From positions 1,302,001 through 1,366,000 of the forward strand of contig OZ024756.1 of assembly GCA_964016885.1 (NCBI GenBank): a stretch of DNA of 64,000 bases, given 5' to 3'. A program made the translations under genes and the position numbers. The stretch comes from Eledone cirrhosa (lineage: Eukaryota). The notes under the pieces are model-generated. The model was not told the DNA's origin. It made no database searches and saw nothing but the letters and a program-made list of their open reading frames with translations. Below are positions 10,901-16,900 of this stretch, one piece after another (within the stretch, counting starts at the first letter, position 1; the number at the start of each line of letters is the position of its first letter).

Positions 10901-13900
10901 ATTCTATCCCTCTCAGACACAGTTTCTCTCTCAACACATTTATGCTGGGTCGTTCACGCACATTTACACTGCACATCCAACGGAGCATGCTTGCCTCATT
11001 TCTCACCAGCCGTCGCATATCTTCTGCAGTTGCTGCCCATATCTCACTACCATGCAGCATCGCGCTCCTCAACAGGCATCATACAACCAGCCTTTCGTAC
11101 GCAGGGAGAAACCCTTCTTCGTCAACAGAGGAAGCAGCTCCCTAAACTTCTTCCAACCCATCCTTATTCTAGATACTATGGCCTCGGAACACCCTCCTCC
11201 TATGCTAATCTGATCTCCTAGGTACCGGAAGCTATCCACCACTTCTATAGCGCCCTCCTGCATTTGAAAAATGTGTCTATCAATACGACTTCTACTGTCT
11301 AATTTCCCTGTACATCTTCTGCATACATATTTCTCCCTACCTGTTAGTTTGCCTGCTATCCCGCTACATTTCTTGTGTACCCAGGTTCTGCATTGTGTGT
11401 ATTTTATAGAATTTATGCCAGTTCCTTTTCTGCATATCGAACATGGCCATTTCCCTGACGGAATCAGGGTTTTGTCCTCTTTTCTACTCATCAACACTTT
11501 TGTATTAGCTAGATTCACTCTCAGTCCTCTTGTTTCCAACTGATGTTTCCATAGCCAGAATTTATTCTCTAGCTCCTCTACTGATTCTGCTGTAAGAACC
11601 AGATCGTCAGCATAGAGAAGTTCCCATGGACAGCCAGTCTTAAACTCCTCTGTTATGGCTTGGAGGACTATAATGAACAAGAGCGGGCTGTGGACCGAAC
11701 CCTGATGTACTCCTACTTGTATCTGGAATTCCTCACTAAACTCCATTCCTACCCTGACTTTACTGAGAGTATCTCTGTACAAAGTTTGCACTGTCCTCAC
11801 AAGCCATTCCTCAACACCCAGCTTCCTTAGGGACCACCGGATGACAGATCGGGGTACCCTATCAAAGGCCTTCTCTAGGTCAACAAAGGCTAAGTATAGT
11901 GGCTTATTCTTCTCTAAGAACCTCTCTTGCAATTGTCTCACCAAGAAGAGGGCATCTGTTGTACTCTTCCCAGGCACAAAACCAAACTGCATCTCATCTA
12001 GTTTGACCCTTTCTCTAATTAGTTGTGCTAAAATCCTTTCTGCCACTTTCATAACCTGATCTATCAGTTTTATACCCCTATAATTGCTCCTCTCCAAAGC
12101 ATCCCCTTTACCTTTGTAGCAATTTATGAGAATACTGCTGCACCAGTCTTTGGGTATGACACCACCATATATAGCCTGATTGATGATGCGTGCAACCAGT
12201 TTAGTGCCTACGTCCCCTGATGCCTTCAGCATCTCAGCAACTATTCCCGATGGTCCGGCAGCCTTACCATTTTTCATTTCCCTAATCGCCTCTTGGACCC
12301 TATATTCGTCAATCTCAATAGCTGGTCCCTCTGTCGGATCTACCAAGGGCAATTTCTCTCTCTCCCATTTGTTCTCCACATTCATCAGTCTCTCATAATG
12401 ACATTTCCAGGCCTCCTTTTTCTGATCATTTGTGACACTAAGTACACCGGCATCATCCCGGACACATTTATTCCCAACAACATCCTGATTTGCATTGACA
12501 CACTGCTTTGCAATGTGGAACACCGCACGCCTCTGATCTTCCCGTCGCAGAACATTGGCAAACCTGCTACTCTCTGCCTCCCTGTGTGCTAAGTATAATT
12601 GACGTCTAGCTTCTCTCTTAGTGGCTGTATATTCTTCCCCACTCCCACCCTTTTTCCAAGCCTTCCATGCTAGTCTTTTGTCTCTAATAGCCTTATCTAC
12701 TGTGCTGTTCCACCACCAGGTCACTCTCTGTCTGGTTGGAGCTCTGCTCCAGCCACAAGTTATATATATATATAAACCTCACTTTCTAATATATATATAT
12801 ATATATATATTAGAAACAGGTTTTTTTACAAAATGAAAAATAACCGATGTGTCCTACACGAATGAAAGTATAAGGAAAAAAGATGAAATCAACAATGCAA
12901 CTGGAGCCTTATTTAAAAAAAATATATATATATTTATTTGGTTCCTTTACCGGTTTCGCAGTTCTTCTGCTTTTCAAAAGTAGAGTTGAGATGGAGGGTC
13001 TGTGGTTTTTCTCCCATCTGATTGGTCTTTGAATCTTACTTGTTTCATATGGAAAAAAGTGGCTCGAAACGCCAGGTTTTTAGAGAAGTAATTTGATTGG
13101 TTGGTGAATAAGTATAATAAAATAATAAATTTCGCGCCAGTACACGTTACAAAGTTCTTCAAACAGGGCGGGGGGGGGGGGGGGTGCTCAGGTTGATCTT
13201 TCATATATGAGTGAAGTTTGGTTGGTTGATATATATATATATATATATATATTAGTATCAGTGCTCTGAAATAGCGATGTATGTATGTATAGTATATTTG
13301 ATAATATCCTGTATGTTTATCTAAAACTATTTTGAAATCCATTCACTGTGAGTTTTAAAGTAGTGACTATGTCACTTACTTAGACTCGGCAAAAACAAAG
13401 GGAAGCAACCGGCGACCGTTTCTCACTCGTTAGCGGTTATCAACATTGCATACCCCTTCGCTCCTGCCGAGATTTATAGGAGCTGGATTCTTATAGAATT
13501 CCAGTGATGTTTAAGAGCTGATCAAAGAGAGCAGTTGCCAGTCCAGCAAAAATTAGGGATTAGTTTCAGTGCTCTGAAATGTATGTATGAATGTATATAT
13601 AGTATATTTGATAATATACTGTATGTTTATTTAAAAAACATTTTGAAAACCATTCATTGGTTGCTTCACTTTGTTTTTAAATATACTATACATACATTCA
13701 TACATACCTTTCAGAGCACTGAAACTAATCCCTAATTTTTGCTGGACTGGCAACTGCTCTCTTTAATCAGCTCTTAAACATCACTGGAATTCTATAAGAA
13801 TCCAGCTTCTATAAATCTCGGCAGGAGCGAAGGGGTATGCAATGTTGATAACCGCTAACGAGTGAGAAACGGCCATCGGTTGCTTCCCTTTGTTTTTGCC

Positions 13901-16900
13901 GAGACTAAGTAACATAGTCACCACTTTAAAAATCATAGCGAATGGTCTTTAAATTTTTTTAAAAATAAACATGCAGTATACTATACATACATTCATATAT
14001 ATATATATATATATATATATATATATATATATATATATATATATATATATATATATATATTTATATATATATATATATATATATATATATATATATATAT
14101 ATATATATATATATATATATATTTATATATATATATATATATATATATATATATATATATATATATATATATATATATATATATATATATATATATATAT
14201 ATATATACTAGTGTGGAGGATGGACGATAAACAATGATGATATGTGTGTGTATAGAATTAAGGTGTTCGCTCCAACATAGCTGTATACATATAAGTATGC
14301 ATATTTGGCTTATCTAATGATATACAGTATGTTTATGAATAAACAATTGAAAGCCTTTAGCGATGAATTTTGGAAGTTGATGGTGTAGCATTATCTAGTG
14401 AATACCGGCTGAATCAAGAGGGGGGTAATTACCGACGGTCGTTTCTGACTGATGGTTGTTATCAAGGCAGTACTCACATTATCTCGCTTACTGCTGGAAT
14501 TCAATATAAGCGAAAACACGTAGTTTTGATGCCTATGTACATGGGCTGATCAGTCCATTTGCATATGGAGTAAACATACCGTATATCTGAGACGACATTT
14601 CTTGGTACCATTGGTGTACATACATACACACATACAAATATATGTATATATGTATGTGTGTATCTATTTATTATTTTGTTCTTCTACTTTATATTCAGTG
14701 TCTTTTCAAACTACACAGTTGATTTGATTGCCACTACAGCATTCGGTGTTGAAGTAAATTCTCAAAAGAATCCCGAACATAAGATTATAAGGAGTTTTGA
14801 GAGATTTTTTCAAGTCAATTTTATTGACCCAATTTCTTCGATTCAAGGTAGATGTTCATTAAATTACTTCTAAGTGATGTTTTAGAATTAACAGTTTGTG
14901 ACATGACCGCACACATACACACACAGACAGACACAGGCATACACATCCCCACCCACCCCACCCCACCCCCCACACACATGGCTTCTATTCTCCATCATGC
15001 ATGGATGGGCTGTGGTCAGTGTTGTGATCAGTTCAGTCTTTGATGTTGTTGGACCAGGAATTTCTTTAGCTGCCTTTTCTTCACCCTCCCTTGACTCTGA
15101 AGAATGGCTTTAGACAAGGAGCCATGGTGAGATACATGGCTTTAGACAGGAGTCATCGTGAGATACATGGCGAGAGTGGTTCCTGGCAGTCAATATATTT
15201 ATTGACTTGCTGCTTGACAAAGTTGTTTGTTTTGTGTTCTGTGTATGGTGTGTCTAGCAACTGTCTAAAGCACTTGTGTTTGAATACCTGGATTCCTTGT
15301 TCTTTGTCAGCTGTAAGAGTCCAGCTCTTACTCCCCTCGAGAAGAGGCCACATCTTGTCATTATCTCATTTTGATATCTGATGTCCTTGGTCAGAGTGAA
15401 CCCTAGATACCCAAAGGTGTCCGCATATTCAAGTCTTCCTCCATTCAGCATGATGTTGGTTGCAATATTCTGATTATTACTATTAATCAGAATCTTGCTC
15501 TTTTCTGAGCTGATCTCCAAACCTAGTCTTCTTGAACTCACTCCCCAAATTGTTGCACTCTACTCTTCTTACTCATGAACAGCCCTCAACTAAGGATCTC
15601 AAACTCTTTACAAATGCTATGCTAGCTCTGAAGGCACATCAAAATTCTAAACATTTCTTTCTCTGCAGAGTGAAACCGTTGATTGACAGCTCAACATAGA
15701 ATAGCAAAATCGGTAGATTGTCAAACTAAATGCATATTAACATTCTAAATTATAATGTAATTTATAAAAAACTGAGCATCAAATACTGTTTCAAATCCTC
15801 CATTATTTTACGTAGACTATAAATGTATGTATGGTCCCATAATTCCTGATAGTCACAGGGGCACTGTATTGACATACTGCATTTCTTGGACATTTTTAGA
15901 CCTGAAGGAGCCCATCCCTCTCCGGGCCTGAGTACAGCAGACTTCTTCCAAAGAAAGATAGAAAGTGAGAGAGATGAAATTAGAAAGAGATATACAGGAT
16001 GAATCGACCCCAGTGTTAGACTGGTACTTCTTCTTTATCGACCTCAAAAGGATGAAAGACAAAGTTGACAAAGACCATAAATACTTGAACACAAAAGTTT
16101 CTTATTACATTTCTAGAAGATATAAATATTTATTCACAGAGAAATGCAGTTGATCATAACAAATTGAACACCTTATTGTTGAATTCCTTCGAATAAATGT
16201 TGTATTTCATGTAATCAGGGGTAAATCAGATATACCCATTTTGTTTCAGCAACATTTCCACCAATTCTAAAAGTTATGAAGTTTTTTGGAATCGAAAGCA
16301 ACTATGACAAAACGATGAGAGAAATATCTGAGTTTGCCAGAGAAATTGTAGAAAGTCGAATAAAAAATAACACGGTATGAAATATCTACTTTATATTTTA
16401 TATTATCGAGTATTCTAGATTTCATTCTCCTGAAAATAATTTGAGTTTGTGTAAAATGGTGTTCATAAAGAACAAAGACAATAGGATTTCATGTTAACTA
16501 GGTATGTAGTAGGCCACTGCCTGAGTATCTAGGGCCCTAGATTTATTGTACAATCACTTCACATGTATAGATATATGGTTTAATGCATGGCAAATCTCAG
16601 GTATTTAAGGGGTTAAAAGTTGTCAGCAGAAGGTCACACAGGAGTCATGACATAAAAGAAACCCAGTCCTGTATAGTGTAAGGATTTAAGGGCAGAAACA
16701 ATTGCATGGGGGGAGGTTTCTTCTCTCTGAAGACCTTCTGTTGTCCAGTTCTTCTGAAGGTTTCTTATTAATATTTGTAAATGTTCTGATTACTTTCAGG
16801 TAAGAAAAGATTTCATCCAATTGTTGTTAGATGCAAAATTTGAAAATATTGATCAAATTGATGACGACATGAAACATGAACTGGAGACCCTTGAATATAA

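Follow-up and report, generated by a model that had tools for sequence, protein, structure and literature searches.

In a 64,000-nucleotide (nt) stretch of the Eledone cirrhosa genome (contig OZ024756.1, positions 1,302,001 to 1,366,000; hereafter the window), two neighbouring insertions at 13.3 and 14.4 kb belong to a non-coding family with units of about 310 bases and carry type I hammerhead ribozyme motifs, with U3-A8 in place of the C3-G8 core pair found in a young relative at 45 kb (Table 1). We put the probability at roughly 0.7 that they are decayed members of this family, inserted as retrozymes without long terminal repeats (non-LTR retrozymes) by the enzymes of a Penelope-like element, from a parent lineage that was likely still cutting. 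An earlier reading of this DNA, referred to here as the original prediction, had proposed a change from C3-G8 to U3-A8 in a long-lived family under selection for catalysis.

The 13.3-kb insertion consists of two arms in opposite orientation, and the left arm matches itself at an offset of 308 (13251 against 13559), in agreement with the predicted period of about 308. BLAST matches of the 45-kb unit cover both arms (13251-13651, 69.9% over 425 columns, expectation value (E) 4e-40; 13674-14016, 67.6%, E 1e-21), which bears out the proposed co-linearity of the two elements; the pair of 30-mers on which that proposal drew was located at 13527 and about 45252, with 25 of 30 letters equal. The 14.4-kb copy is matched by a 13-kb arm at E 1.6e-7 using nhmmer but by the 45-kb unit at E 0.002 only, and its alignment with that unit runs through the 13-kb arms. 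Outside the hammerhead, identity is 65-68% between the 13-kb arms and the 45-kb unit, 57% between the arms and the 14.4-kb copy and 50% between that copy and the unit; private differences in the same region number 57 at 14.4 kb, 38 at 45 kb and 14 at 13 kb. The 45-kb array has TA repeats on both flanks; 3.7 of its 310-bp units, 99% identical, run in one direction, and a further unit is inverted. Profile and covariance searches of the window found no further copies. Non-LTR retrozyme units are defined as non-coding, 170-400 nt long, with a G+C (GC) content under 45% and one type I hammerhead, and the family has all of these properties: its units are 308-310 nt long with a GC fraction of 0.34-0.39, and the list of open reading frames (ORFs) contains no frame of 120 codons inside a unit. 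Retrozyme monomers are expected to be highly self-paired, and those of the family are: circular folds gave z scores of -4.7 (45 kb), -2.7 (13-kb left arm) and -2.0 (14.4 kb), against 40 shuffles each.

Hammerhead cores were found by motif scan, and the core at 13845 was placed by alignment. Positions 3-9 align without gaps, reading CTGAAGA in the 45-kb unit and TTGATAA in all three old cores, including, as predicted, the one in the 14.4-kb copy, which lies at 14465 on the minus strand; the motifs are thus positionally homologous, a point on which the original prediction had been staked. Positions 3 and 8 form a Watson-Crick pair throughout, U-A in the three old cores and C-G in the 45-kb unit. 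A type I hammerhead core is defined by U4, G5, A6, A9, G12, A13, A14, A15.1, U16.1 and H17 in type I order. With the 45-kb unit as reference, the nine invariant core positions are retained in full in the right arm and the 14.4-kb copy and at 8/9 in the left arm; both arms share a 14-nt spacer from position 9 to 12 with the 45-kb unit, against 13 nt in the 14.4-kb copy. The usual G10.1-C11.1 pair is absent: C10.1 lies opposite A11.1 in 3/3 old cores (13852/13865 in the right arm), and a U10.1/U11.1 mismatch takes its place in the 45-kb hammerheads, which have a palindromic stem III, and in a second array at 28 kb. In the 13-kb and 45-kb motifs, a long extension of stem I retains a stable fold (z -4.9 to -5.9). 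U3-A8 had been put forward as a tolerated compensatory change, and this agrees with Perreault et al. (2011, PMC3088659), who describe it as a natural covariation that had earlier been shown to be active in vitro; the variant itself is not new. Rfam gave only sub-threshold HH9 matches on the 45-kb unit (16 bits, gathering threshold 52), and there was no hammerhead among the 150 of 215 matches listed for the window, where microsatellite-driven microRNA matches occur.

As they stand, the old copies carry lesions. The left arm has G2.1 opposite G1.1, U16.1 changed to C and a broken stem III palindrome, while the right arm has G2.1 (13844) opposite G1.1 and A16.2 (13875), again with stem III broken. 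The letters 13873-13876 of stem III and their left-arm equivalents hold three of the eight proximal differences between the arms, which disable stem III differently in each (p 0.002 for the clustering, in a window picked after the fact). At 14.4 kb, the hammerhead keeps 5/6 stem I pairs and 2/3 stem II pairs, has a loop II that is 1 nt short and folds no better than its shuffles (z 0.2). Each old hammerhead is also alone on its own strand, whereas the 45-kb relative has four in tandem; in the absence of a same-strand neighbour, cis cleavage of a dimer through a palindromic stem III is ruled out for the old copies. Li, Clavereau and Pollet (2026, preprint 10.64898/2026.07.22.740005) call a retrozyme active if at least two consecutive units bear hammerheads, as is the case for the 45-kb relative and not for the 13.3-kb arms or the 14.4-kb copy. 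The arms and the 14.4-kb copy are, judging by their sequence, most likely inactive retrozyme derivatives, and the idea that catalysis persists in the old copies is not supported, given their lesions and their lack of a partner for dimer cleavage. The predicted consensus CGGCCG-TC is present in neither arm (left CGGTCG-CC, right CGGCCA-TC), although paralogues support it. Since a consensus of the two arms retains G2.1, it is unsuited for a cleavage assay.

Paralogues were examined by mapping four of the six sequencing runs listed for the species to the right arm alone (13700-13975), with 80% likeness required, a filter that favours copies resembling the query. Runs X1 and X2 represent one sample, maybe the source of the window, and X4 and X5 are other samples from another study; all frequencies are unphased. 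The family proved to be multi-copy: contigs matching the right arm numbered 1122 and 914, and reads 857 and 757. C at 13844 (79, 77, 90 and 89% across the four runs) restores the 2.1-1.1 pair, and G at 13875 (79, 86, 88 and 62%) restores 15.2-16.2; this G is the letter of the predicted consensus, which thus holds at 62-88% of depth in 4/4 runs. C at 13863 (58-66%) turns a stem II G-U into G-C. Two further changes, 13871 G>A (49, 46, 45 and 20%) and 13874 C>T (42, 50, 52 and 24%), are matched, so that the stem III palindrome is kept, and 13840 C>T goes with 13882 G>A in stem I. Position 7 is variable (14-61%). No change at positions 3, 8, 10.1 or 11.1 appears among the 40 of 142 differences listed, which rules out only a well-supported alternative at these positions. 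Reads with loose ends, 111 in one sample and 143 in another at an agreement of 0.99-1.0, stack up with GTAGTC, the stem I strand of the 45-kb unit, in front of a TTGATAA core; they may all come from one locus. A loose end with a TTGAGAA core is seen in 18 contigs at an agreement of 0.62. Within a hairpin segment at 13780-13820, the summed depth in the run contigs at 13790-13809 reaches about a hundredfold that of the hammerhead core, an indication of much larger related families that have this part in common.

These data bear on whether U3 and A8 could be ordinary C>T and G>A decay in dead copies, pairing by chance. Both changes are transitions of the kinds commonest among the paralogues (C>T at 18-26 places, G>A at 21-27 places), and in a neutral simulation a double change at 3-8 to a Watson-Crick pair has by itself a chance of 0.04 at this divergence. 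The same letters nevertheless recur in the 13-kb and 14.4-kb lineages, which are 57% alike, and at a third locus in the reads, and U3-A8 is apparently the majority state in dozens of paralogous contigs. Chance decay is thereby largely refuted, and we regard it as highly improbable. Since the same letters are found across a multi-copy family whose majority restores stems I, II and III, the sequences support U3-A8 as a heritable trait of the lineage.

Two-sided changes occur at 6/16 named pairs across the four sequences, a count reached by 0/500 shuffles and compared with 0-3 in slid controls; such counts are inflated by relatedness, and two of the four rows are arms of one insertion. Between the 13-kb arms, 8/238 proximal and 14/96 distal columns differ (Fisher p 0.0005). 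This points to template units that were not identical, or to conversion at a later stage, so letters shared by the arms, such as G2.1, are not independent. In the neutral simulation, which treats sites as independent and uses the divergence measured outside the motif, the joint retention of the nine core letters, the 3-8 pair and at least 8/10 stem pairs has a probability of 0.003. Once both sites change, a Watson-Crick pair at 3-8 is expected in 0.39 of neutral cases. The predicted covariation thus survives as a heritable U3-A8 state, while statistically meaningful covariation of the 3-8 change itself, one event among three lineages, is not supported. Of the selection claim, the part that stands is purifying selection on the hammerhead as a whole, which the shuffles (0/500), the simulation (about 0.003) and the stem-restoring majority letters of the paralogues support; that catalysis was the target, rather than RNA shape, we infer.

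The anatomy of the insertions suggests how they arose. The 13-kb, 45-kb and 28-kb insertions each have two arms joined head-to-head at their 5' ends (3/3), and all six 3' ends enter TA repeats, so that neither the ends nor any target duplication can be sharply defined; the TA microsatellite between the 13.3-kb and 14.4-kb insertions is likely target DNA. One arm carries a tail in 3/3 cases (27-33, 47 and 65 nt), and that of the 13-kb insertion (about 27-33 nt) sits on the left arm without counterpart on the right. At their 3' ends, the long arms of the 13-kb and 45-kb insertions stop no more than 3 nt apart when homologous coordinates are compared (about 2% by chance). The 14.4-kb copy offers a 17-nt hint of a head-to-head arm only, and its 3' end may match the same tail end, though weakly (3.5% of shuffles). 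For Penelope-like insertions, the literature describes truncated inverted copies, microsatellite targets and a tail of 30-40 bp (PMC8557442, PMC3846280), the tail corresponding to the distance between two start sites of the reverse transcriptase (RT) (PMC11167929). From this likeness, the elements were likely inserted by enzymes of a Penelope-like retrotransposon. The junction piece between the 13-kb arms, which matches the sequence just past the cleavage site, is suggestive only as a sign of cleavage; such a coincidence has a chance of about 9% for one of six arm starts and its own start is ambiguous, and we did not count it as evidence.

The most likely course of events would begin with transcription of a tandem parent array. 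Adjacent hammerheads would then dimerise at their palindromic stem III, with cleavage following C17, and the resulting monomers of 308-310 nt could circularise, as published retrozymes suggest. A Penelope-like RT/endonuclease would nick TA repeats and begin copying the RNA at two sites separated by some 30-50 nt, and the two starts would yield the head-to-head arms with a tail on one that are seen in the DNA, the enzyme being presumed. Selection on the parent RNA keeps the core and the stems as the remainder diverges to 50-68% identity, and single inserted copies decay; both are visible in the sequences of the window.

Head-to-head arms, a tail and TA targets are also hallmarks of the pseudo-long terminal repeats (pLTRs) of coding Penelope-like elements, and the units could instead be orphan pLTRs and not form a retrozyme family of their own. 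It was in repeats of the Cercyon Penelope-like elements (PMC4209133) that U3-A8 was first noticed, and retrozymes have been argued to derive from pLTRs (preprint 10.64898/2026.07.22.740005). The 45-kb relative, however, consists of 3.7 non-coding head-to-tail units, the hammerhead is canonical (6-bp stem I, 4-position stem II, hexaloop) and not of the minimal Penelope type, and none of the Penelope-like remnants in the window matches the family. An origin as orphan pLTRs is accordingly quite unlikely in our view. No ORF with RT or GIY-YIG lies in or between the units. Elsewhere in the window, a Penelope-like ORF of 877 codons (31270-33903, minus) matches RVT_1, has no DNA in common with the 310-bp family and contains what we take, by eye, to be a GIY-YIG motif. 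A hammerhead-like motif with a long helix II lies at 34372 on the strand opposite to this ORF, as in an inverted terminal repeat, and a similar motif lies at 55827. Further Penelope-like remnants, all minus, are at 828-2303, 36403-37852 and 43694-44167, the first and last sharing a near-identical endonuclease-like end.

Several observations weigh against insertion as retrozymes from a cutting parent. Every old core in the window is damaged and lacks a same-strand partner, and with G2.1 common to both arms the template may already have been damaged. A minority C3-G8 or unpaired class is possible among the paralogues, the 102 unlisted differences including 4 T>C and 4 A>G in run X1, and a loose end reading CTGATAA (12 contigs, agreement 0.62) represents either an unpaired C3-A8 or a mixture. 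The tails differ from the published 30-40 bp in 2/3 cases, and the window has no autonomous element with DNA in common with the family. C10.1/A11.1 breaks a G-C pair described as highly conserved in Penelope hammerheads (PMC4209133). Finally, hammerhead mutants of an anole Penelope-like element inserted normally in vitro (PMC11167929), so cleavage need not be the selected trait.

With a weak or dead ribozyme, the U3-A8 lineage might have spread while an RNA shape for a Penelope-like protein was conserved and the 3-8 pair rode along. The anole mutants fit this, as does the need of the anole ribozyme for protein (PMC11167929), and 8/9 predicted Xenopus retrozyme dimers were uncut in vitro (preprint 10.64898/2026.07.22.740005); C10.1/A11.1 in 3/3 old cores and G2.1 in both arms point the same way. 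On the other hand, the single-stranded catalytic letters G5, A6, A9, G12, A13 and A14 are invariant across lineages that are 50-57% alike, the tolerant position 7 alone varies, and matched changes keep stem III palindromic. A U-U mismatch at the place of C10.1/A11.1 is moreover compatible with cutting in an axolotl retrozyme (PMC7229834). We therefore consider conservation of shape without cleavage rather unlikely, and descent from a cutting retrozyme lineage remains our preferred reading.

As for the order of events, one C3-G8/U3-A8 switch separates the 45-kb lineage from the other two. The direction from C3-G8 to U3-A8 given in the original prediction is not supported: the lineages are unrooted, decay at 14.4 kb prevents rooting, and the two U3-A8 lineages are not close sisters, being 57% alike while the 13-kb and 45-kb lineages are 65-68% alike. 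U3-A8 may be the older state. The 464-bp array at 28 kb was considered as an outgroup for the 3-8 change and rejected, its unit not being alignable above shuffles with the four family units; its hammerhead alone scores against the family. This array (27745-29837) is itself a young, unrelated and retrozyme-like head-to-head array with TA repeats on its flanks, and has four intact C3-G8 hammerheads (28083 and 28547, minus; 29100 and 29564, plus) with U-U at 10.1/11.1, a loop II similar to that of the 310-bp family, the 65-nt tail and a circular fold of z -6.4. A more speculative proposal, which we judge unlikely, is that U3-A8 would be the older state and function only in company with C-A at 10.1/11.1, C3-G8 going with U-U in a so far undescribed coupled switch, the junction piece at 13659 would be a fossil of in vivo cleavage, and the tail would reflect Penelope-like enzymes moving retrozymes from fixed internal start sites.

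Among known systems, the family shares with metazoan non-LTR retrozymes its units of about 300 bp, GC under 45% and single type I hammerhead (PMC7229834), as well as a weak palindromic stem III and co-occurrence with Penelope-like elements (PMC7229834; 10.64898/2026.07.22.740005). Like the 45-kb and 28-kb arrays, axolotl HHR_Amex2, which cuts, has a U-U mismatch at the helix II base (Cervera and de la Pena 2020, PMC7229834). The old copies differ from the retrozymes described in these texts by their U3-A8 core, C-A at the helix II base, solitary position on each strand and damage. Cervera and de la Pena (2014, PMC4209133) reported the same core swap, about 1,300 times, for Schistosoma Cercyon, which is likewise an animal repeat tied to Penelope-like elements; those motifs are minimal, with a helix II that is long, one additional base behind position 9 and a conserved G10.1-C11.1, unlike the canonical type I motif, 8-nt stem III palindrome and 10.1/11.1 mismatch of the 310-bp family. 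Its insertions resemble those of Penelope-like elements in the inverted 5'-truncated copy at the 5' end, the optional one-sided 3' tail and the microsatellite or AT-rich targets (PMC8557442, PMC3846280, PMC11167929), and differ in that the unit has no RT or endonuclease ORF and the 47- and 65-nt tails exceed 30-40 bp. In the pDo500 satellite of Dolichopoda cave crickets, a hammerhead more conserved than the rest of the repeat with compensatory stem changes was likewise read as selection (Martinsen et al. 2010, PMC2837043), but C3 and G8 are nearly invariant there and the text available reports no U3-A8 lineage. C-A at 10.1/11.1 together with U3-A8 was not found in the literature searched, although supplements or Lunse et al. 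2017 may list it, and the main texts searched hold no head-to-head insertions with a tail on retrozymes. A pattern scan of viral contigs gave 0 matches. Of 33 pattern matches in metagenome contigs, none completes a hammerhead; five scored 21-22 bits with our own model after pre-selection by the pattern, and the three inspected, without stem III and cleavage triplet, were dismissed as chance.

Table 1. Members of the 310-bp family, their hammerheads and associated sequences in the window
Feature	Position	Strand	Remarks
Left arm of 13.3-kb insertion	13251..13656	-	1.3 units, period 308; 3' end enters TA repeat
Type I hammerhead, left arm	13397..13457	-	U3 (13443)-A8 core
Junction piece	13659..13678	+	19/20 letters equal the sequence directly after the hammerhead cleavage site; start ambiguous by 2-4 nt
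Right arm of 13.3-kb insertion	13679..13996	+	about one unit; 3' end in TA repeat
Type I hammerhead, right arm	13831..13891	+	U3 (13845)-A8 (13850); predicted cut after C17 (13877)
TA microsatellite between 13.3-kb and 14.4-kb insertions	13995..14207	no strand	
14.4-kb copy	14255..14599	-	older single family member; ends approximate
Decayed type I hammerhead, 14.4-kb copy	14420..14479	-	U3 (14465)-A8
45-kb array	45002..46439	3.7 units plus, about 1 minus	young relative; 310-bp units, head-to-head
45-kb array hammerheads (n=5)	45311, 45621, 45931, 46241; 45169	plus; minus	C3-G8

Microsatellites and remnants of retroelements abound in the window. On the plus strand, a cytochrome P450 gene has exons in co-linear order at 7410-7527, 17993-18163 and about 20870-21020. 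The exon at about 7.4 kb matches positions 34-72 of the Pfam P450 profile (E 0.003), the sole P450 match among 90 frames scanned, the exon at 18.0 kb matches positions 256-312 of the P450 profile (E 1e-13), and that at 20.9 kb has what is presumably the heme motif. The 13.3-14.6-kb elements thus likely lie in an intron of this gene, and if so, the pre-mRNA would fold into a long hairpin at the 740-bp inverted repeat. Beside the 45-kb array, a larger inverted repeat (44640-45000) encloses an inverted tRNA-like pair (44745-44815, minus; 44822-44892, plus; Rfam tRNA 34-35 bits); this may be a further case of head-to-head insertion, by a tRNA-bearing repeat. Two remnants of one family of the long interspersed nuclear element (LINE) type, at 11069-12778 and 22274-24337, have long RT frames and similar sequences in opposite orientations.

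The core swap, retrozymes and selection on repeat hammerheads have all been published, and the swap by itself changes little. A standard search for CUGANGA would nevertheless overlook the entire U3-A8 lineage. Head-to-head arms with a tail add structural support for Penelope-like mobilisation, which the papers cited argue from co-occurrence and phylogeny. One genome with young C3-G8 arrays and dozens of older U3-A8 copies provides a natural series, which allows a test of whether selection keeps cleavage in retrozymes, a question left open by insertion without cleavage in vitro.

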